A stretch of DNA of 64,000 nt from a virus (IMGVR_UViG_2540341244_000005:7399-71398); one strand, 5' to 3'; counted from the first letter of the stretch, positions 1,482 to 37,775 are shown. Numbers and translations are program-made. The notes: a model not told the origin generated them from the sequence alone.

Positions 1482-2048
1482 TCATCTTGCCATGGCCGTG
1501 GCGCGTCGCGTACCGCCGGCTTCGGCCGGCTCGGGATCAATGCCGGCTTTGCGGCACCGGCTCCACAGATCCTTGGCCAGGGTGGACAGGGCGGCCGTGT
1601 CGGTCAACCAGACATACTTTTCGACGCCGAACTGTTTGGACACCCGGGCGTCCAGACTCTTGGGCTCGTAGCCGAGCAGGCACCACAACATGAGGATATA
1701 CTTCTTCTGCCGCGCCAGCGGGCCCGCCGGGATGTCCAGGCGCTCGTAGCCGTCGACCTTGTCGCCCTTGCGCCAGTTGTGCAGACGCTTCGGCAAAAGC
1801 GGGATGTCCACGGCGGCGTGGTCGGGGAGCCACTGGGCGGCCAAGGCATCGAGCACCTGGTTGCGCTGCCCCAGCGTCAGCTTCGACCAGGAGGCCGCCT
1901 TGCCGCCCAGGATGCGGCCGAACATTTCGATCAACAAATCCCGGTCGTTCTCGTAAGAAAGCGTTGTGGCCTTCAGGAGCGTTCCGAAAAAGACCTTGCT
2001 TTGCATGTTGTAGATGGCCGCGCATGGGACGAAAGGTCGCTTTGCCAT
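1482..2048 (-). CDS. gemA: GemA-like (Mu gp16/DUF1018) regulatory protein
   Basis: ASWSKLTLGQRNQVLDAL and QKKYILMLW...SKQFGVEKYVWL match the GemA pattern; position in the early operon. Confidence 0.55.
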   Translation of the reverse strand: MAKRPFVPCAAIYNMQSKVFFGTLLKATTLSYENDRDLLIEMFGRILGGKAASWSKLTLGQRNQVLDALAAQWLPDHAAVDIPLLPKRLHNWRKGDKVDGYERLDIPAGPLARQKKYILMLWCLLGYEPKSLDARVSKQFGVEKYVWLTDTAALSTLAKDLWSRCRKAGIDPEPAEAGGTRRATAMAR

Positions 2049-3098: not shown

Positions 3099-3110
3099 GG
3101 TCTTCTCCTG

Positions 3111-3173
3111 GTGGCTGCTCATCAGGCCCGGGCCGCCACGCCCGGACGACCGCCCACATGGGGCGGTTTCGCA
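3111..3173 (-). ncRNA. Type II hammerhead ribozyme
   Basis: UGC-GAAA-CCGCCC(CAUGU)GGGCGG-UC^-GUCCGGGC(GUGGCG)GCCCGGGC-CUGAUGA-GCA: complete core and three stems; loop I GUGGC can pair with the 3' GCCAC. Confidence 0.9.
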
Positions 3174-3479
3174 TCAGGCGTTCGGATTCAACGCATCCTT
3201 CAGCGCCTTCCCCACATTGAGCTTGGCGCTCCGGCTGGCCTCGATATCAATGGTCGCACCGGTGCGGGGATTGCGGCCTTTGCGCGCCTTGCGTTCCACC
3301 AGTTCCAGCGTGCCCAGGCCGGGCAGCGTCACCTTGCCGCCCTCGGCCAGGATCGAGGCGGCCTCCGCGCCGAGTGCATCCAGCACATGGCTAATGGTGG
3401 TCTTCTCGTGTATGTGCTTGGTCTGCACGTCGCCGGCCAGCCGGTCCTTGATCCTGTCGATGAGTCCCGCTTTGCTCAT
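3174..3479 (-). CDS. HU/IHF-family DNA-binding protein
   Basis: MSKAGLI...VTLPGLGTLELVERKARKGRNPRTG...GKALKDALN. Confidence 0.92.
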   Translation of the reverse strand: MSKAGLIDRIKDRLAGDVQTKHIHEKTTISHVLDALGAEAASILAEGGKVTLPGLGTLELVERKARKGRNPRTGATIDIEASRSAKLNVGKALKDALNPNA

Positions 3480-5260: not shown

Positions 5261-5976
5261 GCCCGCCTCCAGCTCTTTTGCTTCTGGATCGCCGCCACCA
5301 TGGCCGCGTCGGCCTTGTCGGTTTCGCGGGCCTTGGCCGCCTGTTCCAGCATCTGCACCATGTTGCGCACCAGCCGCATGTCGCCGTCCGAAGTGGCCCG
5401 GACCATGGCGCAGGCTTCGGGCGTCAAGTCGAGGCCGGCGGCTTCGAAGGCGAAGGCGGCGATGTCGCCTTCATCCACGGGGCCGAAGGCCACTTCCTGG
5501 GTCACGCGGGACCAGATGCGGCGGCGCTTGGACAACAGCCCGATAAGTTCCTCTTCCCCTATGAGGAGGATTGCCGCCCCGGTGGCCTCATGGATGTCGC
5601 GCAAGTCCTCGATCCGCCCGAAGGCCAGCCGGTCGGCTTCGTCCATGTAGATGGTGGCGGCCTGGCCCTGTTTGCGCCGTTTCTCCAGGACTTCGACAAT
5701 CCGCACTTTGCAGGCGTGGGCCGAACGCGGCGCTAGCGCACCCGTGACCTCAAAGCACAGCTTCCCGAGGAAGGCGGCCTGCGTCATGTCTTCCCATGCG
5801 GAAAGGAACACCCCGCCGCGCTCGGCCTGGCTGTTGCGAGCGGCAAACGTCTTGCCCCGGCCGGCCTGGCCCCAAGCCACGACAATGCCGGGCTGGCCTC
5901 GCTCGGTATCCTCGACAGTCAACACGGCCCGCTGAAAAGCGGCTACGTTGCCCGTCTCCACAAAAACCGATTTCAT
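5257..5976 (-). CDS. MuB-like AAA+ transposition ATPase
   Basis: Walker A GQAGRGKT, Walker B IYMDEAD, LRDIHE; follows the transposase. Confidence 0.92.
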   Translation of the reverse strand: MKSVFVETGNVAAFQRAVLTVEDTERGQPGIVVAWGQAGRGKTFAARNSQAERGGVFLSAWEDMTQAAFLGKLCFEVTGALAPRSAHACKVRIVEVLEKRRKQGQAATIYMDEADRLAFGRIEDLRDIHEATGAAILLIGEEELIGLLSKRRRIWSRVTQEVAFGPVDEGDIAAFAFEAAGLDLTPEACAMVRATSDGDMRLVRNMVQMLEQAAKARETDKADAAMVAAIQKQKSWRRA

Positions 5977-8084
5977 GCGTCTCCTCCCCCGTTGGCGGCC
6001 TTGCGACGGCGCTCGTAGACCGTGCGCAAGCGCGCGTAACGTCCAGCCGCGCAGGCCGCGTATTCCTCGGTTTGCTCATAGCGGGCCATCCATGCGGCGT
6101 CGGCCTCACGCAGGGCCAAGCCGTCACGAACGGCCAAATTGAAAAGGTATTCGTAGCGGTCGAGTTCATTGACGATGGTGGCCATCTGCGCCGGCGGCAC
6201 ATAGGCCGGGGCGGCTTCGATCTTGGCCCTGGCCGCGATCTTGGCGGCTTCGATGCTCTTGACGTTCGGGGCTTTCGGTTCCGGCAGAGCCGGCGTTTCG
6301 GCCTTGTCAGCCGACACCAGACGCATGCGAGTCTGTGTTTCCGGCAGCACCACGGAATTCAGGAAATCTCTGGCGTTGGCCGTGACCTGGTTTTCCAAGG
6401 CCTTCTTGTAGGCGATCTCGCTCGTCAGAACGGCCTGATCGTCAGCGGTCCCAAGGAGGCGGGCAGCCGGATGCACTTTCGGCACGGGCGTGGCCTCGCA
6501 GATCAGATTCTTGCCGGACTGGTCGTAGACGAGCACCGACCGCCGGTCCTGCTCGTCGAAGCGCACCAGCACGGGATGGCGCAGGCTATGCAAGAAGGGA
6601 TGGCGATAGGACTGCCCAAAAAGGCCCACGCCGTTGCGGTCGATGGTGCGGACCACCTTGGAGAGCATGCACAGCCGCAGCTTAAGCAGATCGCCTTCGC
6701 CAAGGCCGGGACCGGCCCCCGCAGCAAACGCCTCGGCCGGAGCTTTGCCGGCCAGGTGGCCCCGCTGGGGGCGTTCGGCATAGGCATCGAACCAACTGGC
6801 AATGGCGGTATGGGCTTCCTCAAGGGTCAGCGGCCGGCCGCCGGATGCCTCATAGACTTTGCGGTGGAGCTTCTCCCCGCGCATGAGGCGCGGTGGCTTG
6901 GATTCTATGGACGTGCCGACATATGACGGTATCCAGCGTTCAAGCTCGCCGAACGTCTTAAAAAAGCGTTCAATGGTCTTGGACTGACCGTGGTAGGGCC
7001 AAGCGAAAAGCGGGGCTATGCCGAGTTCCTGAAATACGCCGCCAAGGCCACTTTGCTTCAGGTCCACGCCGTTGAAAAACTTGCTCCGGAAGGCCCGCCC
7101 GTTGTCCAGATAGGCCACCTTCGGAAACATTCCGAGTCGCAGGCATGCCCGGCGCAGGGCCGAGGCGATGGCTTGCGTGTTTTCCGTGGGCAGGATTTCC
7201 CAGCCAAGCGGGTAGCTGGATGCCATGTCGAACCACAGCACCAGTTCCATGCGCGCCCCCTTGCCGGTCTCCGGGTCGAGAATCTCGAAATTGAGGGCAT
7301 GGCCGTCGGCCACCAGGATGTCGCCCACGCTGATTTTCGAATAATCGCGCTCGATATACGGGCAACAGTCGTCGTTCCAGGCCTTGGCTCCCTCGCGGGC
7401 GTAGACCCATTCCCCGTAATTGAGGGTCATCCACTTGCGCAGGTAGCGGTACAGCGTGATTTCGGCGCAATCCGGCAAGCCGGCGGGCTTAAATGCCTCG
7501 CGGGCCATGCGACAGACTTCGGAAAGACAATGCTTGTTGGGATGGCGGACCAGGGCGAGCAAAATTTGGGCGTGTCGTTCGGTTACAACCGGCTCCACGC
7601 GCACGCCGCCGCGTGTGTCGGCCAGGGCCAGGGCCGAGCCGGTGCGGCGCATGGCGGTCTTCCAGCGTTCCAGGGATTGGACGGACACCTTATCGCCAAG
7701 GATTTCCTTGATCTTGGGCCACACGCCGCCCCGGTAAGCGGCGACGAACTCCTTGCCGGCCTGTCCCTTGCGGGCCGCCTTGGCCAGGGCTTCGGTGTAG
7801 AGGCGCACCAGATCGGCTTTAGCCAGGGCCTTGCGGCGTTGATCCTCGGTCAGATTGGCATCGGCGGCCACGGCGGCGGGGAGATTGGCCCCCTCGTAAG
7901 CGGTAATGGCGTCCTGGATGTCCTCGGGCAAGGAGGCGGCGAGGTAGGCCTTTTCCCGCCAAGCTTTGCCCGAGCCGGCTTGTGCCGCGCAAGCCCACCC
8001 AGCTTTGCTTGCGCGGCTATTGACCGCCCGAGGTGTCACACCCAGGGCATAGGCCAATTCACTTGCTGTGTAAGCGTCCTTCAT
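5973..8084 (-). CDS. MuA-like DDE transposase
   Basis: N-terminal HTH (YTASELA); DDE motifs VADGH / YLDNG / KTIERFF; Mu-type C-terminal region. Confidence 0.95.
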   Translation of the reverse strand: MKDAYTASELAYALGVTPRAVNSRASKAGWACAAQAGSGKAWREKAYLAASLPEDIQDAITAYEGANLPAAVAADANLTEDQRRKALAKADLVRLYTEALAKAARKGQAGKEFVAAYRGGVWPKIKEILGDKVSVQSLERWKTAMRRTGSALALADTRGGVRVEPVVTERHAQILLALVRHPNKHCLSEVCRMAREAFKPAGLPDCAEITLYRYLRKWMTLNYGEWVYAREGAKAWNDDCCPYIERDYSKISVGDILVADGHALNFEILDPETGKGARMELVLWFDMASSYPLGWEILPTENTQAIASALRRACLRLGMFPKVAYLDNGRAFRSKFFNGVDLKQSGLGGVFQELGIAPLFAWPYHGQSKTIERFFKTFGELERWIPSYVGTSIESKPPRLMRGEKLHRKVYEASGGRPLTLEEAHTAIASWFDAYAERPQRGHLAGKAPAEAFAAGAGPGLGEGDLLKLRLCMLSKVVRTIDRNGVGLFGQSYRHPFLHSLRHPVLVRFDEQDRRSVLVYDQSGKNLICEATPVPKVHPAARLLGTADDQAVLTSEIAYKKALENQVTANARDFLNSVVLPETQTRMRLVSADKAETPALPEPKAPNVKSIEAAKIAARAKIEAAPAYVPPAQMATIVNELDRYEYLFNLAVRDGLALREADAAWMARYEQTEEYAACAAGRYARLRTVYERRRKAANGGGDA

Positions 8085-8128
8085 TGTGCCGCCATTTGTC
8101 CGCTTGAAAGATTTCCGCGTGTTACTTT

Positions 8129-8190
8129 CGGCTGCTCATCAGGCCGGACGCACCACCGTCCGACGACCGCCCCGCAGGGCGGTTTCGCAA
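8129..8190 (-). ncRNA. Type II hammerhead ribozyme upstream of the transposase
   Basis: UUGC-GAAA-CCGCCC(UGCG)GGGCGG-UC^-GUCGGACG(GUGGUG)CGUCCGGC-CUGAUGA-GCAG; stem I covaries with the copy at 3111-3173. Confidence 0.9.
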
Positions 8191-10753: not shown

Positions 10754-11476
10754 TCACGCGGCCTCACGTTTGGGGTACGGCTGGATCGGAAGGCGTAGGC
10801 GTTTGCGCCAGGGCTGCTTCAGAAATAGCACGTAGCGGAACTGGCGGAACTGATGCCGGGTGGCCCGGTGAAGGTTCTCCCGGAGGTGCTGGGCGCGGCC
10901 GCCTTGGTGGCGATGCGCTGTCAGCATCAGGACGTGATACCAGTCATCATCCAGGTGCCAGAAGGTGGCAAGGTGGCTGCCGCAGAACTGAAAGTTGCTG
11001 GCCTGGTAGACCACCCCCAACCCACCGCAGCGTTCGTCGGCAAAGCTCTGGACCCAGGCCACGGTCGGGCAGGCGCGGCGGATGTATTTCACCGCATAGC
11101 TTATTGCCTGGCTTTCCGTATTGCGCGGGCAGGCGTCGTCAAGCCACATCCTGTTGAGCTCCAGATATTCGCCGACCTTGGTCCCTTCCACCACCCTGCC
11201 GGCCAAGTGCGGGTTCAGGGCGTAGCCGAATTGGAGCACACCCCGAAAGTGCCCCTGATGGTAAACGCCCAGGTGCACGTAGCTGTTATTGACCACTCGC
11301 TTGGAATAATGCTTGGCCACGATGGTTTCCCGTGCCCTGGCCGCCGGGATGGCGGCCAGGTAGAGGTCGTGCTTGCCGAACCCTTGCACCCCGGTTTCGC
11401 CTATCAGGTAGCCCGGTTGGTCACCGGTCGGCGGTTCATACGGACTCGGTTTCGGCGGATGATACGGTCTGGCCAT
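10754..11476 (-). CDS. mom: Mom-family DNA adenine modification protein
   Basis: HYSKRVVNN...GVLQFG...LELNRMWL...RNTES...SFADERCG..GVVYQASNF; downstream of and overlapping com. Confidence 0.9.
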   Translation of the reverse strand: MARPYHPPKPSPYEPPTGDQPGYLIGETGVQGFGKHDLYLAAIPAARARETIVAKHYSKRVVNNSYVHLGVYHQGHFRGVLQFGYALNPHLAGRVVEGTKVGEYLELNRMWLDDACPRNTESQAISYAVKYIRRACPTVAWVQSFADERCGGLGVVYQASNFQFCGSHLATFWHLDDDWYHVLMLTAHRHQGGRAQHLRENLHRATRHQFRQFRYVLFLKQPWRKRLRLPIQPYPKREAA

Positions 11477-11627
11477 GGGTGCGCTCCCTGGGGGAGGCTC
11501 CATGGCCTTCTGTGATGGGGCTCGCGGCCCTCACGTGGTTGATGGTATGGCAGCGGGGACATTTGATTTCGATGGTCCCGGTGCCTTTGGCCAGTAAACG
11601 TCCGCATTGTCCGCAACGTATCTCCAT
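11436..11627 (-). CDS. com: Com zinc-finger translational activator
   Basis: IRCGQCGRLLA...IEIKCPRCHTIN; upstream of mom. Confidence 0.9.
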   Translation of the reverse strand: MEIRCGQCGRLLAKGTGTIEIKCPRCHTINHVRAASPITEGHGASPRERTHGQTVSSAETESV

Positions 11628-31235: not shown

Positions 31236-32561
31236 TTAACAACGATTAATAATTTCCATAATCTCCCTGTATTTGTAGGCTGCAATATTTAAATCGCCGT
31301 TTTCTTTTTCCACTCGACGCTTTATAAGGTCTCTATTGCATGGAATCATTGTGTTCCATTCAAAGTTCCACGTATCATATGCTGCCCATGATGATCCAAT
31401 AGATCTATTTTTTGACATTGTTCTCATTGAAGACATGACAGCATCTAGATAGTCACTCTCAATTGCTGTTCCATTTATTTCCAATAATGTCCCCAAATAA
31501 ACTAGCCAAGATGCCAAGTGGTCATACTGATCCCATGCATTTCTTTCGGATGACAAGCTTTGTTTTTGGTTAATAATTCCTTTTAACGCATCAACAACGT
31601 CAGGAGAGTCCACGCTTTTCCCAACAGCAAAAAGCGAAGCAATTATTTCAAAAAAAGATGATCTTAATTTTAAATAGACATTGTCGTAGCACCCCCCGGC
31701 TAATACCTCCCGAATTTTTTTTCTGCTTATTTCAACAATGTCTTGTGCCTGTGAAAGTTCCTGGGTTACTTTTTCGAAGAAATCATGTATTTCCAATTCA
31801 TCAATAACTCTAATGCCAAAACAATGCGCATAATAATCCTTTAGGTAAGTATCTATTCGATTATTTGATACAAAAAATATATTTTTTCCTATGGAATGGC
31901 TGGTCAAAAATAAATTACTATCATTAATTATTGCTTTTAGATTGTTGTCTCCGAGAGAGTATCCTAAGATAACAACTGTATTTTCATGTAATAAGGTACT
32001 CATTTTTCGTGAAAAATATGAATCATTGTTTGAGAATTGAAAATAATCACTTGCAGTGACCACCATATGTCGCGGGTGGTCAATTGAACCATGAATATGG
32101 TAGACACTGGTCTTTAAAGAAGAACGCGGAATTGGGAGTCCTGGAGAAAGTGAATGGCAGTCATCAGGATCCGACAATTCTTCGATAAGCTTATCATAAT
32201 TTGTTGTAATGATATTAAGCGGAACTGCTTTGAAAAATTCTTTAATAATATCGTTATCACCCGACATGGAAATTCCAGATATTATGCGTGAAATTATAAT
32301 TCTAATATCTTCGCTGTAATTTTCAAGGTTTATTGATATAATCTCAGCGGCTTCTTCAAGGCTTACCGGGCAGACTCCCCCAGACGGGAATAGTATGCCT
32401 TTTAAGGTAGACGAGACTGGAAGTTCATCACATACTTCTTCTAATAAACTTCGCCAGCTTGGGGCTTGATTTGAAGTTACTGCTTTTGAAAATCCTGTTC
32501 CAGTAAAGAGGCACAACCGGTTGGAAGCGGCAGCATATGCGATTTCAAAAAATGCGCTCAA
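31236..32561 (-). CDS. SIR2-family (SIR2_2) protein, AT-rich moron, candidate anti-phage NADase
   Basis: LFTGTGFS, IITTNYD, YHIHGS, VILGYSLGD motifs; TTG start at 32561 after GGGAG; low GC. Confidence 0.88.
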   Translation of the reverse strand: MSAFFEIAYAAASNRLCLFTGTGFSKAVTSNQAPSWRSLLEEVCDELPVSSTLKGILFPSGGVCPVSLEEAAEIISINLENYSEDIRIIISRIISGISMSGDNDIIKEFFKAVPLNIITTNYDKLIEELSDPDDCHSLSPGLPIPRSSLKTSVYHIHGSIDHPRHMVVTASDYFQFSNNDSYFSRKMSTLLHENTVVILGYSLGDNNLKAIINDSNLFLTSHSIGKNIFFVSNNRIDTYLKDYYAHCFGIRVIDELEIHDFFEKVTQELSQAQDIVEISRKKIREVLAGGCYDNVYLKLRSSFFEIIASLFAVGKSVDSPDVVDALKGIINQKQSLSSERNAWDQYDHLASWLVYLGTLLEINGTAIESDYLDAVMSSMRTMSKNRSIGSSWAAYDTWNFEWNTMIPCNRDLIKRRVEKENGDLNIAAYKYREIMEIINRC

Positions 32562-32687
32562 AATTTTGTCTCCCAATAACCGGCCGCAGTGCTCATTTTG
32601 AACTACCCAGAAGGCCGTTAAGCATCCGTTAGAATTTATCCTAAACTCTATAGCTGCACTTTGATGCCCCGGCAAGTCCCTCAGCCA

Positions 32688-33049
32688 TCACCGCCCCTCC
32701 AACACCTGTAGCAGCGATTCTAACGCCACCTCCTCGATTTCTGCCTCATCCTCCGGCCCGACCCCAAAAAACCGCCTCGCCGGGATGTCGCCCCAAGGAA
32801 TGGGCGTCCCTCTCCGGGTGCTGCCGTACTGCCCTTTCTTGGCTCCGAACTGGTGAGTGGCGGCCTTGACGTCGGCGGTGCCGACGCGGGCGAAGTCCGG
32901 GCCGTGCTCGCTATGGATGGAGCCGGCCAGGATGCCGCTGACGATGAGGATCGGCTGGCCGGCGTTGTGTCGCGGCCGCTGGCGATGAGGCGGCGCAGGG
33001 CGGCGAGCAGCCGGGGAGACGGGATGTAGATCTCGATCATGTCGGACAT
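32688..33049 (-). pseudogene. Virion morphogenesis protein gpG (Phage_tail_S family), deleted and frameshifted
   Basis: N-terminus MSDMIEI...DTTPA joins out of frame at GGCCGG (~32957-32962) to GQPILIVSG.LAGSI...AATHQFG...IPARRFLG. Confidence 0.85.
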
Positions 33050-33092
33050 GGCGCTTGCGTCCCTCCGGGCGAGTGGTTAAACGATAGACAAA

Positions 33093-33184
33093 GGCGGTCG
33101 CGACACGGTGTTATTCTCCCAGCCGTAGCACGGGCACATGCCCGGCGCGCCATGCGGGGTTCCCGGGAGGCCCCGCCGACCGCC
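33093..33184 (-). ncRNA. Putative four-way-junction RNA with kissing loop downstream of MuF
   Basis: P1 GGCGGUCG/CGACCGCC, P2 GCGGGG/CCCCGC, P3 CGGGC/GCCCG, P4 ACGG/CCGU; loop CUCCCG complementary to loop UGGGAG. Confidence 0.55.
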
Positions 33185-33188
33185 CCTA

Positions 33189-34421
33189 TTATTTCCCGCC
33201 TTCCCACAAGACTTTTCCCCGTCGTTTGAGTGATTCCACATCCTGGGCGTTCGTCTTGCGAAATGAGGTGACGTAGACGGTTTCCCTGGCGGCGTCGGCC
33301 TTGATGGCGGCCATGAACCAGCGTGACTCCTTGCGGGCCAGCACCAGCTTGCGCCCGTCCACCTGGATGACCAGGTCCGGCCTGGCTCCCAGCTCCGGCA
33401 GCAGCCCATAGTCCTCGGACGTCAGTTCCGGGTGGTGGCGGAGGTTCTTGACGGCCGAATCAGCCGACAGCACGGCCACCTCGGTCTTGGCCTTGATGGC
33501 CTTGGCCGCCTTTTCGGACAGACGCATGACCGGCCAATCCCCTTCGGGACGTTTCAGGAACCGTGCAAAGCCGTCCGACCGCACCGTCTCCCGTAGCGCC
33601 AGGTCGGCGGCCTCGCGTGGGGCCATGGCCAGGGACGTGGCCAGCTTCTGCCCCAGGGTGGCCATCCAGGATCGGCCCGGGTTGGAGGCCCAGCCCGGGT
33701 CGGTCTGCATGCGCACGTTCGTATCTGGATCGGTGAACACCGCCATCCTAGCCGTGCGGCCGTCGCGCGCGATCCGCACGTCCTCATGGCGGATCTTGCC
33801 GGCCGAGGAGTCGACCTTGATGCCCTTGCGCTCCAGGCGCTCGCCGGACAAGGCCCGCACGCGGCAGCGACAGTTCCAGCCGTTCGGCGGGTAAAAACTG
33901 CTCCAGAAGGGGTCGTCGTAGCGGTACGTTCTGCCGTTCATGGCCGCGTGGGCCGGCCGGGTGCGGGCGTCCATGACGGCCACGTACATCCAGTAGGGTT
34001 GCTCCTCGGCGTTTTCGAGCTGCTCGCTGTAGCGGCCGGCGGCGTAGGCCGTGGCCAGGTTGGTCTCGTAGATGGTTTTGAGTCGCCACGGGCTGCCGAG
34101 CTGGGCTCGGCGCACCTCGCCGGTGCGGGGATCGACGATTTCCTGCTTGCCCCACCAGCCCTTTGCCTGGAGGATCGGCGTCAGCTCCTTGGCGAACTGG
34201 CGTTGCGTCAGGCCCTGGTCTAGGGCTTTTTGAACGGCGCCTCGAATGTCGGCCAGGATGTCCAGCTTGACGCATTTGGCCACGGTGAAGCTTTTGGCCT
34301 GCGCCTCGGCGAGCAGCTCGTGCCAGTCAAAGGTGATGGCGTAGCCCTTGGCCTGGAAATAGGCGATGGCCCGTTCCGGCGGCAGGCCGAGGGCGAATTT
34401 AAGGTCGGGGACGTCGGGCAT
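33189..34421 (-). CDS. Mu gpF head morphogenesis protein with C-terminal extension (PBECR-like nuclease candidate)
   Basis: LQAKGWWG, RLKTIYETN, D.RTRPAH, PPNGWNCRC; C-terminus KNLRHHPEL..EDY..LP...YVTSFRK. Confidence 0.9.
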   Translation of the reverse strand: MPDVPDLKFALGLPPERAIAYFQAKGYAITFDWHELLAEAQAKSFTVAKCVKLDILADIRGAVQKALDQGLTQRQFAKELTPILQAKGWWGKQEIVDPRTGEVRRAQLGSPWRLKTIYETNLATAYAAGRYSEQLENAEEQPYWMYVAVMDARTRPAHAAMNGRTYRYDDPFWSSFYPPNGWNCRCRVRALSGERLERKGIKVDSSAGKIRHEDVRIARDGRTARMAVFTDPDTNVRMQTDPGWASNPGRSWMATLGQKLATSLAMAPREAADLALRETVRSDGFARFLKRPEGDWPVMRLSEKAAKAIKAKTEVAVLSADSAVKNLRHHPELTSEDYGLLPELGARPDLVIQVDGRKLVLARKESRWFMAAIKADAARETVYVTSFRKTNAQDVESLKRRGKVLWEGGK

Positions 34422-34642: not shown

Positions 34643-36172
34643 CTACACCTCCTTGCTCTCGGCCCGGGCCGACAGCCGCCCCCAGACCGAACTGATGAAG
34701 ATGGCCCGGGTGAGCAGATCCGTAAACGTCGTGTCGTCCATGTCCGGGTAGACCCCATGCAGCCGTTCGGCGATGGCCTCCACCGACCCGGCCGTCTCCA
34801 CCAGGTCGAGCACCGGGGCGAGAAGCTGGCCGGCGATGCCCTGGAGCGTCTCGGGCGTCAGGGCAGCGGCCATGGCGTCCAAGGGGTCGGCAGGGCCGGC
34901 GGCCGGCGGGACGGCCCGGCCCTGGGCGAACTCGGCCGCCGGGGCCTCGCCGTCACCGCCGGGTTTGACGGGGCCGGCCACGACCTCGATGTCTTCCTCG
35001 GCCAGATCGTAGGCCTGCATGAAATAGCGCTTGGTGAACTTCACCTGCCCGGTGTCGGCCAGGGTCTTGTCCCGGGTGGCCAGCTTCTGGTCCACCTCCT
35101 CTTCCTCGAAGAGTTCAAAGAGCGGCCGCGCCTCGCCCGGGCCGAAGTTCACCTCGCAGATCCAGTCGATGAGGGTGGCCATGGTCTCGATGACAATGTG
35201 CTTGTCGCCGTCTTTGATCTCGTGCCGCACCCGCTCATGCACCTCGGCGGCGGCCCGGGAACCGCCGGAAACCGACGTGGTCAGGTTCTGCCCCAAGATG
35301 CAGATGGCGATGTCCTCGTCGCAGGTGGCCTTGAGGTCCCGGTAGAGCGAGGAGGAGCCCGCCTTGCCTGCCGCCTCGACGATCTGGGCGCTGTTGCCCT
35401 CGGGGATAACCAGCACGGCGTCCTGGATGGCCCGCTCCAGCCGGTCGGCCAGGGCGTCGACGGCCTTTTTGTCCGCCTGGGGGTCGTGCTTGGCGATGAC
35501 CCAGGCTCCGCCGAATTTTTCAATGAACCGCAACCAAAACTTCAATCCGCCTTTCTTGAATGTGACCGGCCAGAAGCAGCGCGAGAGCACGCGCTCGCCG
35601 TAGGGATTGTCGTAGGTGGCATTGTACCGGGGGATCAAAAACTTTTTCGGGGGCAGTTCCTCGCCCTGGATCAGGTTCGACCGGGTGCGCAGGCGCAGCT
35701 CGTTGTCCGGCGAGAACACAAACCACTCGACCGGCTTGCCAGCCACCCGGTCCGGCACGGTGGCGCTGCCGTCGCGCCTCCAGACCACCTCCAACGGCTG
35801 CATGCCGTAGAGCGGCGCGTTGAGCATCTCCCGGACCAGGTCGTTGACCCGGAGTCGGGACAGGCACTTGCTCACGAACTTGGCATGCGCCGCCGGAGCG
35901 TCGCCCCGGGAGACGGCCCATTCCAGGGACACCACGGCCGCCTTGCGGGACTCCACGCACGGGCCGACCCGGGAATCGGAGAGCAGCTCCTTGTAGACCT
36001 TGATGTCCTTGCCGAGCTTACGCAGCACCGGGTCCGGGTCGGGCAGGGACATGGCCAGGCTGAAGAAATCCGGGGAGCGCTCCCGGGTGGCGATCTCCTC
36101 GAAAAGCGTCCCCGGCCCCCGGTCGATGGGGCGATAGTCATAGGGGCTGGTCCAGATGCCGCGTGCGGCCAT
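34643..36172 (-). CDS. Portal protein (DUF935, Mu gp29-like)
   Basis: NPYG..VLS.CFWP..FK..G..FW..F.EKFG...ILGQNLTT. Confidence 0.92.
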   Translation of the reverse strand: MAARGIWTSPYDYRPIDRGPGTLFEEIATRERSPDFFSLAMSLPDPDPVLRKLGKDIKVYKELLSDSRVGPCVESRKAAVVSLEWAVSRGDAPAAHAKFVSKCLSRLRVNDLVREMLNAPLYGMQPLEVVWRRDGSATVPDRVAGKPVEWFVFSPDNELRLRTRSNLIQGEELPPKKFLIPRYNATYDNPYGERVLSRCFWPVTFKKGGLKFWLRFIEKFGGAWVIAKHDPQADKKAVDALADRLERAIQDAVLVIPEGNSAQIVEAAGKAGSSSLYRDLKATCDEDIAICILGQNLTTSVSGGSRAAAEVHERVRHEIKDGDKHIVIETMATLIDWICEVNFGPGEARPLFELFEEEEVDQKLATRDKTLADTGQVKFTKRYFMQAYDLAEEDIEVVAGPVKPGGDGEAPAAEFAQGRAVPPAAGPADPLDAMAAALTPETLQGIAGQLLAPVLDLVETAGSVEAIAERLHGVYPDMDDTTFTDLLTRAIFISSVWGRLSARAESKEV

Positions 36173-36284: not shown

Positions 36285-37775
36285 CTAAAAGTTGTCGAGC
36301 AGGTCGTCGGCCTCGCGCCGGCCCCTGGAGGTGACTTTGTCTTCGGTCAGCGTGTCGTTTGGTTGCTCGCCGGCATGGACAGTCAGAGCGGCCGCCCAGA
36401 AATAGTCCGCGTGGCCCGTGGCGTCGCTCCGCTCGGCGTCAAACCGGGAAAGTCCCGTGCTGGTCCTGAATTTCTGGACGCTGTGCAGGGACGTGGAAAT
36501 ATTGGTGTCGATGGGGATCAGGAACCCGTAGTCCTCCAGGACGTCCTTGAGTCCCACGGCCAGGGCCTCCTTGTTGGCGTTGCCAAAGTCGATGCCCTCG
36601 ACGCGCGACCCGAAGAGGTCGCGGGCTTCCTCGGCGAGCTGGCGGCCTATGCCGCTCTGATCGATGCAGGCCCGGCCACCGGAGCGCATGACGTGGGGCA
36701 GCACGGCATACAGCACATAGCGCTGCACACGAAACGGCATGCGGGCGAGAGGAATGACGACCTCGGTGATCCTGGCCACATCGGTCCGACGGGCGAGCCA
36801 GAGTACGGACAAGTCCCGGGTGCGGCCGATGTCGAATCCCAGGTCGAGAGGATCGCCTATGCCCACGAGCTGCGCCGTCAACTCCTTGGATTTGGTTTGC
36901 CACCAGGACGGGTCACTTTTCGTGAGTTTGAAATGCTTGTGGGCCTGGACGGCCAGATCCACGAGTTCGGTGACCCAATCCGGCGCGGCGTCGATATATT
37001 CGTCCTCGGCCGCTCGGAGGAGTTCCCAGGTCAGCCAGGCCGTGGCATCGTCCTGGGGCTCCAGCTCGTACTCTTCAAGCCACACAACGGGATCGGCGAC
37101 AAGGTCGCGCAGGCTCTCCACCGTGCGGATCTTGCCTTCCTCGTCCTTGAGGATGAGGCCTTCCCGGAGGGCGTCATGGATGCTGGTCCGGTGTTGCGAG
37201 TAGGCTTTGTTGCGGGTCAGGGCGTAAAACTTGGTCTTGGTTCCCCGGTGCGTCGAGGCGACGCGGACGCCGTAGCCTCGCGTGATGGCCGGCACGGCCG
37301 CCCGCCAGATGCCCCAATCGTCCTTGTGGAGGGCAAACTCGTCGAGGTTCACATTTCCCGAGAACCCGGGGATCGTGTCCGGGTTGGATGGGACCAGATT
37401 GAGAAACCGGTCGCCGGGAAACGCAACGAGCCAGGTATTGTTCTTGTCCGGGGTCAGCTTGCCTTCGGTCAGCAAGGATAACGCCTTGATGTGCCGGCGC
37501 ATCTCCCGGCCGGAACGAAACACCTGCCGGGCCGAGGCCGAGCCGTAAACGGATTCGATGGGGCGCGGCGACAGCGCTGTCTCCAGGATGGACTTGAACG
37601 TCAGGGCAAAGGATTTGCCGATCTGGCGCGAGGCCGGCCACACAATGCCGGCCGACCTGTCCTCGATAAAACGGCGTTGGTACGGGAGCATGATGCCCAG
37701 GGCGGCCTTGAGGCGCTCCCGGGTGTCACGGTCCTGCCCGAAGGCACGCTCAAACTTTTGGCCGGTCGTTGCCAT
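36285..37775 (-). CDS. Terminase large subunit
   Basis: LPYQ, SRQIGKS, NLDEFA, GFDIGR, IDQSGIG, HADYFWA. Confidence 0.95.
   Translation of the reverse strand: MATTGQKFERAFGQDRDTRERLKAALGIMLPYQRRFIEDRSAGIVWPASRQIGKSFALTFKSILETALSPRPIESVYGSASARQVFRSGREMRRHIKALSLLTEGKLTPDKNNTWLVAFPGDRFLNLVPSNPDTIPGFSGNVNLDEFALHKDDWGIWRAAVPAITRGYGVRVASTHRGTKTKFYALTRNKAYSQHRTSIHDALREGLILKDEEGKIRTVESLRDLVADPVVWLEEYELEPQDDATAWLTWELLRAAEDEYIDAAPDWVTELVDLAVQAHKHFKLTKSDPSWWQTKSKELTAQLVGIGDPLDLGFDIGRTRDLSVLWLARRTDVARITEVVIPLARMPFRVQRYVLYAVLPHVMRSGGRACIDQSGIGRQLAEEARDLFGSRVEGIDFGNANKEALAVGLKDVLEDYGFLIPIDTNISTSLHSVQKFRTSTGLSRFDAERSDATGHADYFWAAALTVHAGEQPNDTLTEDKVTSRGRREADDLLDNF

Follow-up and report, generated by a model that had tools for sequence, protein, structure and literature searches.

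Genomic Context of the gpF Gene

The DNA analyzed here, hereafter called the window, is a stretch of 64,000 nucleotides (IMGVR_UViG_2540341244_000005:7399-71398) forming part of a 71-kb provirus with a G+C content of about 65%; positions are counted from the first nucleotide of the window. It contains a Mu-like head operon on the minus strand, in which the genes for the terminase, the portal protein, and gpF are followed by a 139-nt spacer, a gpG-like gene, an insert encoding a SIR2 protein, and the genes for protease I and the major head protein T. The subjects of this study are the C-terminal domain of gpF and a structured RNA, named class-1 RNA, that lies in the spacer. All window features described below are on the minus strand.

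The intact gpF (MuF) gene (33189-34421), identified from the list of open reading frames (ORFs) and by translation, is located between the portal and gpG-like genes and encodes a protein of 410 aa. Its stop codon (TAA) occupies positions 33189-33191, and the 92-nt class-1 RNA (33093-33184) starts four bases further. The remainder of the spacer, from the RNA to the gpG start (33050-33092), carries only a weak copy (33075-33088) of an (A)GUAUAG-type box described below.

C-Terminal Domain of gpF

The Phage_Mu_F domain (Pfam: PF04233) was found at residues 58-188 of gpF, above its cut-off (E 9.5e-28). The C-terminal extension covers about 155 residues (256-410; 33192-33656). It was delimited with an alignment of 75 C-termini (A2) and an AlphaFold2 (AF2) model, and consists of a helical lead-in and a BECR/RelE-like core at approximately residues 313-403 (33213-33485). 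The sole Pfam match in the extension of the window gpF was PBECR3 at residues 301-395, with 17 bits against a cut-off of 30. The same family matched 9 of the 75 A2 members at E ≤ 0.01 (best E 8.9e-6; 17-19.8 bits), all under the cut-off, and MuF_C matched two members. None of the Pfam gathering scores for PBECR1-5 and MuF_C was reached by the window domain, and the A2 profile had no meaningful match among PDB sequences.

Six positions are conserved in at least 90% of A2 members: S319, K325, H330, Y338, K374, and S386. The hallmarks of PBECR domains are present among them, namely the conserved His of the N-terminal helix region (H330) and the C-terminal Ser/Thr (S386). PBECR domains with these two features were previously described at the C-terminus of Mu F orthologues, and RNase activity, or RNA binding in inactive forms, was predicted for MuF-C/PBECR domains (Iyer et al., 2017, PMC5512222).

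The AF2 model of the extension, built from A2, had a predicted local distance difference test (pLDDT) score of 96.8. The top seven matches in an exhaustive VIA-align comparison were all BECR-type RNase toxins, with Z scores of 4.3-5.8: BrnT (5.8), a Salmonella toxin of a toxin-antitoxin (TA) system (5.6), three CdiA-CT toxins (5.2 and 5.1), colicin D (4.7), and RelE (4.3). These values are modest yet one-sided toward BECR-type RNase toxins. Foldseek with the same model gave no matches at E ≤ 0.001, and its best plausible row was again BrnT (probability 0.98, E 0.058). An initial reading of the window from its sequence alone (the sequence-only reading) had recognized a PBECR-type RNase-like extension by motif; the predicted fold and the sub-threshold PBECR3 match bear this out. 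Judging by the model, the extension is a divergent PBECR-type domain with a BECR/RelE-like fold. It looks like a separate PBECR subfamily, lying below every Pfam PBECR cut-off.

Class-1 RNA Downstream of gpF

Among 86 whole-gpF loci compared by blastn, the spacer was kept only behind four genes that also align across the extension. Two of these four loci belong to Nitrospirae genomes, in which the spacer DNA is 75% identical and the protein 42-45%. A pattern for the invariant core of one stem, P4, matched 118 places in IMG/VR, and 98 distinct copies were bounded through the complement of the closing stem P1. Alignment A1 comprises the 84 copies in which no more than one of the 8 P1 pairs is missing and P2 starts regularly; the other 14 were left out. 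A1 is biased in that P1 was picked by complementarity and P4 was set by the pattern; no constraint was placed on P2, P3, or the pseudoknot. Standard pairs fill 96.8% of the A1 pair cells, compared with 79.4% in shuffled alignments (0 of 500 shuffles reached the observed value) and 36-58% when the partners were slid. Cells changed on both sides numbered 380 vs. 84.5 in the shuffles. For the central pair of the pseudoknot, 65 sequences have U:A, 19 have C:G, and none has another combination.

The covariance model for class-1 RNA, R1, was built without the pseudoknot, so the pseudoknot counts are independent of it. A second alignment was obtained from the protein side, with 80 loci fetched by a 15-sequence alignment of the C-terminal domain (A3, a subset of A2). 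These protein-first loci and related R1 matches provided the 68 sequences of alignment A4, in which 96.9% of cells are paired vs. 80.8% after shuffling. A junction pair outside R1 is G:C in 39 sequences of A4, A:U in 19, C:G in 8, and other in 1; the central pseudoknot pair is U:A in 46, C:G in 17, and other in 1. The U:G pair in P4 is retained in 66 of 67 A4 sequences, and this invariant pair fixes the RNA strand as the sense strand of gpF. Over all samples, the loop-loop helix occurs in six variants, every one of them complementary. Stems P1-P3 vary freely; P4, its loop, and the junction are invariant, and the P2 loop often contains an additional hairpin. RNAalifold found P1-P3 de novo and placed P4 in another register that shortens the pseudoknot; the P4 segment is invariant, and the register given for it below is tentative.

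In the window, R1 gave exactly one match, 3' of gpF, with 100.8 bits (E 7e-16). By this match and by covariation, the stems are P1 (33177-33184 with 33093-33100), P2 (33171-33176 with 33154-33159), the junction pairs (33147-33148 with 33128-33129), P3 (33140-33144 with 33131-33135), and P4 (33123-33127 with 33104-33108). The pseudoknot is formed by CUCCC in the P2 loop (33165-33169) and GGGAG in the P4 loop (33116-33120). The sequence-only reading had described a 92-nt element four nucleotides past the gpF stop, and R1 places the RNA at exactly those positions. It had also proposed a four-way junction with a six-base pairing between the P2 and P4 loops; the junction and the 5-bp CUCCC:GGGAG helix agree with the family consensus, and the sixth pair, a G-U, is not conserved. 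The covariation proposed there as a check is far above shuffles in both A1 and A4.

Folding of the window RNA alone gave an energy of -48.6 kcal/mol (z = -1.1; 26 of 200 shuffles were as stable), and the whole spacer gave z = 0.0. Single-sequence energy, being non-significant, was dropped as evidence; since it is no better than chance, support for the RNA comes from comparison only. Covariation across the two alignments shows the element to be a genuine and widespread structured RNA, with a predicted four-way junction and a 5-bp loop-loop pseudoknot.

At the gathering score, Rfam 15 had no match at the element or in 20 related loci, and at E ≤ 10 the window element had just two unrelated weak matches, on the opposite strand. 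The scan took in the hammerhead, twister, twister-sister, pistol, hatchet, and tRNA-like families, and its outcome is consistent with an undescribed RNA, as had been suspected. ARAGORN found no tRNA at the element. A 56-codon ORF spans the window spacer. No conserved ORF was found in the spacer: RNA lengths range from 82 to 133 nt without 3-nt periodicity (45, 45, and 30 of 120 distinct instances in the three classes modulo 3). In many relatives, gpG starts 11-40 nt past the RNA. The absence of a credible immunity ORF, noted from the sequence alone, was thereby upheld. One metatranscriptome contig spans 33078-33184; it is an assembled sequence and is silent on ends, strand, and expression level. 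Three sequencing runs matched the stretch, each in a small share and all through contigs of relatives.

The (A)GUAUAG-type box lies 7-10 nt past P1; the first 30 nt contain it in 54 of 120 instances, compared with 5 of 120 at 35-65 nt. Examples are the 3' flanks of class-1 RNAs at loci L192, L204, and L110. Where gpG follows closely, the box falls between the gpG ribosome-binding site and start codon.

Co-occurrence of Class-1 RNA and the Domain

The linkage between RNA and domain was assessed from three directions. Starting from the domain, 79 of 80 loci have an R1 match (E ≤ 2e-10) right behind the gene and on the same strand; the 80th locus stops at a contig end, hence all 79 assessable loci carry the RNA. 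Starting from gpF, 6 of the 86 loci have the domain strongly and four of these have the RNA, and the R1 search found no class-1 RNA in the 80 gpF-homologue loci without the domain. Starting from the RNA in viral contigs, a long ORF whose end falls between -60 and +45 nt precedes it at 77 of 97 sites, and the domain was detected in 74 of these 77 ORFs; in the upstream ORF of L098 it is present on inspection, and those of L092 and L123 lack it. Among gpF genes, the RNA therefore follows only those with the extension (79/79 with and 0/80 without the domain), which is the outcome that the sequence-only reading required, since the RNA behind MuF genes lacking the extension would have counted against it.

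Spacing differs with gpF length. Short gpF genes run up to or into the following ORF (gpG-like in 56 of 58 cases), with gaps of at most 2 nt in 51 of 57; among 22 long gpF genes, 15 are followed by a spacer of 60 nt or more. No domain ORF was found within 450 nt of the RNA in L100, L129, L146/L189, L181, L201, and L142. In L129, a PBECR2-type gpF is followed 150 nt later by a class-1 RNA.

Sequence comparison shows class-1 RNA and the divergent PBECR-type C-terminal domain to form one cassette, with near-obligate linkage in phages. A consensus-like RNA member searched by blastn matched none of 50,697 cultured-phage records, nor the complete E. coli genomes or the PLSDB plasmids, and tblastn of the domain on cultured phages gave two weak matches only. 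Phage B23 has a 273-nt F-I spacer without an R1 match.

A Second RNA Class Behind PBECR2-Type gpF

The nearest gpF relatives, with 79-86% identity over residues 1-255, end in PBECR2 instead (E 4e-18), and further relatives have a MuF_C-like extension or none. In the PBECR2-ended nearest relatives, an unrelated RNA of about 96 nt, named class 2, begins at the gpF stop codon (L003 4321-4416, L062 4315-4410, L299 1785-1878, L309 1252-1349, and others). The covariance model R2, built from 10 class-2 copies, matched 20 loci, all of the nearest-relative PBECR2 type; it had no match at class-1 loci or at other PBECR2 subtypes. For 12 distinct class-2 sequences, 92.5% of cells are paired vs. 77.3% after shuffling, and none of 500 shuffles reached the observed value; changes on both sides occur in 12 of 21 pairs vs. 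5.9 in the shuffles. MAFFT alignments of class 2 had ragged ends, and single-sequence closing-stem length was non-significant against shuffles; covariance-model realignment resolved this. Evidence for the class-2 fold is good but preliminary, the alignment being small and fitted to R2.

Sequence comparison shows RNA class tracking domain class. Other extension types with spacers of 60-390 nt were found in L045, L049, L054, L058, L081, and phage B23. A metagenomic cassette at L314 1059-1858 (also L315 and L316) combines the end of a PBECR2-type gpF with a variant class-2-like RNA and a gpG that breaks off after about 65 codons; it abuts a type I-E-like CRISPR (clustered regularly interspaced short palindromic repeat) array, apparently at the trailer end.

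Free-Standing RNA Copies and CRISPR Arrays

Three samples of 151 bacterial genomes each also gave R1 matches: seven genomes carried the RNA in the sample drawn from the order of a Solidesulfovibrio genome, four in that from the class of a Burkholderia genome, and three in that from the class of an alphaproteobacterial metagenome-assembled genome. Of the 16 RNA loci in these samples, six have a domain-bearing gpF directly upstream, one is at a contig end, and nine have no such gene within 1.5 kb, so about half of the copies are free-standing. These orphan RNAs preserve the pseudoknot through compensatory change.

Three of nine enlarged orphan loci lie within 1.4 kb of a CRISPR array. In two type II (Cas9) loci from different classes, the class-1 RNA is just past the cas-distal array end (L328 6998-7092, minus strand; L329 6709-6817, plus strand). 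Their common layout is cas9, (cas1), array, RNA, with the RNA on the strand that reads the repeat in the usual sense. The third orphan (L333 7165-7266) is 1.4 kb from another array. By a rough estimate, such proximity is very unlikely to arise by chance. A role of the orphan RNA as trans-activating CRISPR RNA (tracrRNA) was ruled out by a 25-nt anti-repeat upstream of cas9. The orphans beside Cas9 arrays connect the RNA to phage-CRISPR conflict.

A chromosomal locus, L295, has tandem class-1 RNAs (1341-1433 and 1501-1604) 67 nt apart, beside a tail tape-measure gene and away from any gpF; CUCUC:GAGAG forms the pseudoknot of the first copy, and one pseudoknot pair of the second is mismatched. 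In L123 (RNA 5968-6073, minus strand), a Dam-like methylase gene ends 9 nt before the RNA, and in L324 (RNA 1501-1594, minus strand) an ORF for an HExxH YgjP-like protein ends 2 nt before it; both proteins were identified by motif, by eye.

Comparison With Known Systems

The sequence-only reading had drawn a parallel with type III TA systems (ToxIN, CptIN, TenpIN). As an analogy it stands: in both cases, an endoribonuclease-type protein is linked to a pseudoknotted non-coding RNA, with no protein antidote and in a phage-related context. In the descriptions of type III systems drawn on here, the toxin belongs to the ToxN/CptN/TenpN families and the RNA consists of tandem short repeats 5' of the toxin gene; here, a BECR/RelE-like domain is fused to a virion protein, and a single four-way-junction RNA of about 100 nt lies 3' of the gene in 79 of the 79 assessable protein-first loci. 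Because toxin fold, RNA copy number, and gene order all differ, the system is not a type III TA member.

Phage "downstream element" RNA motifs, e.g., Mu-gpT-DE, are conserved structured RNAs directly 3' of a Mu-like structural gene; Mu-gpT-DE differs from class-1 RNA in gene, fold, and sequence. RegB of phage T4 is a RelE-like endoribonuclease that recognizes GGAG-type sequences; it is made early as a free protein and is not known to have a structured RNA linked to it. Its GGAG recognition resembles the invariant GGGAG-type loop of class-1 RNA, a likeness that serves as a lead only. No description of class-1 RNA was found in the literature searched; it may be among the motifs catalogued in the supplements of Fremin (2023) and Weinberg (2017), which lie outside this coverage.

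A closer relation exists to MuF polymorphic toxins, which share the N-terminal MuF domain, interchangeable C-terminal effectors, and cassette swap among close relatives (Jamet et al., 2017, PMC5576092). According to that study, a small immunity ORF follows 89.4% of 191 MuF toxin genes; here, the corresponding downstream position is taken by a structured RNA and no ORF. The proteobacterial MuF extensions (Ct_MAD and others) were left unexplained in the parts of the study used here (Jamet et al., 2017, PMC5576092). The PBECR/MuF-C domains of polyvalent proteins share the BECR fold at the C-terminus of Mu F, and a partner RNA is not among their features in the portions of the description cited here (PMC5512222).

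The role of the proteobacterial MuF extensions and, if they are toxic, the way they are neutralized were questions left by Jamet et al. (2017, PMC5576092). The RNA-domain cassette offers MuF C-terminal extensions a concrete, testable partner: an RNA of about 100 nt with a defined fold, an invariant core, and natural compensatory mutants. Were the RNA to inhibit the domain, this would be the first case of an RNA serving as immunity factor for a polymorphic-toxin-like effector and a new architecture of RNA-protein toxin control. Were it instead a substrate, cargo, or ribozyme, it would still represent a novel class of phage RNAs, found across several bacterial phyla.

Possible Functions of Class-1 RNA

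The reading favored here, tentatively and at somewhat less than even odds, is that class-1 RNA is a cognate ligand restraining a particle-associated RNase-like domain. The RNA would be made as the trailing part of the gpF transcript and fold after the ribosome departs. The newly made domain would then bind it through the sequence-invariant core of P4, its loop, and the junction, and the RNA would act as a pseudo-substrate or antidote that checks the RNase in the producing cell, perhaps until the protein enters the head and is delivered with the DNA. Free-standing chromosomal copies could serve as trans-acting decoys for the incoming enzyme, and other MuF C-terminal classes might employ other RNAs likewise.

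This restraining role is preferred because the RNA class follows the domain class, domain-less gpF genes need no spacer, BECR toxins normally have a specific inhibitor at exactly this position, and the orphan RNAs parallel orphan immunity genes. The conservation pattern, with free stems P1-P3 and an invariant P4, loop, and junction, appears ligand-like. The proposal of the sequence-only reading, a virion-borne RNase-fold domain paired with an RNA antitoxin or ligand, is partly supported: the observation itself is confirmed, and the functional role of the RNA on the domain is predicted from sequence.

Several findings weigh against a restraining ligand. The fold match is modest (Z ≤ 5.8), and PBECR3 is under its cut-off. 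Two Balneolaceae loci (L073 and L074) have the domain and a 130-nt spacer with just a 12-bit R1 match at the right place. Some RNAs trail unrelated genes or none (L092, L123, L100, L324), as is also the case at 9 of the 16 loci from the RNA-first genome samples. In L063, L064, L104, and L116, the last 37-44 nt of the ORF overlap the RNA, so that P1 and P2 must be opened during translation. One RNA per message, located downstream of the ORF, makes an awkward antidote stoichiometry, type III antitoxins being repeated and upstream. Finally, an RNA belonging to a late operon is not expected in lysogens.

A broader form of the restraining-ligand reading is doubtful. It holds that MuF heads carry a polymorphic set of BECR-type RNases, presumed injected, each checked or armed by its own RNA and not by an immunity protein, and that bacteria captured these RNAs, some of them at the ends of CRISPR arrays, as decoys protecting CRISPR or host RNAs. 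If each MuF BECR domain did have its own RNA, this would constitute an RNA-based immunity layer for virion-delivered effectors.

It is rather unlikely that the RNA serves instead as a substrate or as a site of processing, with the domain cutting its own late transcript at or near the RNA, e.g., at the downstream box. Such cleavage could uncouple gpF from the downstream genes, provide feedback on the gpF level, or release an RNA-protein particle. It would explain the domain-RNA coupling equally well; the box at a fixed distance after P1 would suit it, as would the near-invariant His, Lys, and Ser expected of an active enzyme and the single in-message copy expected of a cis site. However, orphans distant from any gpF retain the fold, the box in the window is weak, and a domain existing just to cut its own message is a circular arrangement.

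A protein-independent function is less likely still: the RNA might be a new self-cleaving ribozyme, or an mRNA stabilizer or translation control at the F/G boundary, co-inherited with the domain. The invariant junction and loop core with variable stems would fit a ribozyme, as would the four-way junction with loop-loop docking, an arrangement of several small ribozymes; two hammerhead ribozymes occur in the same record, and the gpG ribosome-binding site lies just past P1 in many relatives. Domain-less gpF genes, however, have no spacer yet express gpG, the RNA class switches with the domain class, the orphans have no downstream gpG, and no Rfam ribozyme model matches even at E ≤ 10.

A role as cofactor or cargo seems improbable; in this reading, the domain would bind the RNA, which would be packed in the head and delivered together with the domain against a host target, possibly CRISPR-Cas RNAs or proteins. 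MuF proteins are head-internal and predicted to be injected, and PBECR domains were speculated to target CRISPR RNAs (Iyer et al., 2017, PMC5512222). The arrays beside three of the nine enlarged orphan loci, two of them with the RNA at the cas-distal end of Cas9 loci, would fit such a target. On the other side, complementarity of the RNA to the neighboring CRISPR repeats is no more than chance and the tracrRNA anti-repeat is located elsewhere; moreover, the variable parts are short stems with tetraloops and not guide-like.

The proposition that the element is no RNA at all, and is a chance fold of a GC-rich spacer, a DNA-level site (pac, recombination, or cassette exchange), or a small immunity ORF, could appeal to the single-sequence z of only -1.1, the 56-codon ORF, and the swapping of domain and RNA as a block, but is effectively refuted by A1/A4 covariation far exceeding the shuffled and slid controls, by the strand specificity of the pseudoknot covariation and invariant U:G pair, by RNA lengths of 82-133 nt without 3-nt periodicity, and by spacer DNA more conserved (75%) than the adjoining protein (42-45%).

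Other Features of the Window

Upstream of gpF are the terminase gene (36285-37775) and the Mu portal gene (34643-36172). Downstream, the gpG-like virion morphogenesis gene (32688-33049) is frameshifted: in a three-frame translation, its N-terminal 30 codons are in one frame and the remainder in another. At the gpG position, relatives have intact genes of 150-180 aa. Given this frameshift, the prophage copy in the window may be defective, and another family member may be better suited to experiments.

Between gpG and protease I lies an AT-rich insert (31236-32675; 42-49% G+C vs. about 66%) that encodes a 479-aa SIR2_2 protein. The insert looks like a defense-type moron within the head operon. 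The top PADLOC matches of the SIR2_2 protein were PDC-S25 (8.5e-28) and ThsA (5.4e-19).

A Mom-family gene (10754-11503; E 8.8e-76) ends the late region that holds gpF, and the window therefore straddles the boundary between two Mu-like elements. At 3109-3174 and 8126-8190 are two type II hammerhead ribozymes, with 77 and 65 bits against a gathering score of 37. They lie in the early region of the second Mu-like element, with DUF3164 and GemA genes close by. One is immediately 5' of the Mu transposase gene (5973-8084), and the other is immediately 3' of an HU-like gene (3174-3479).

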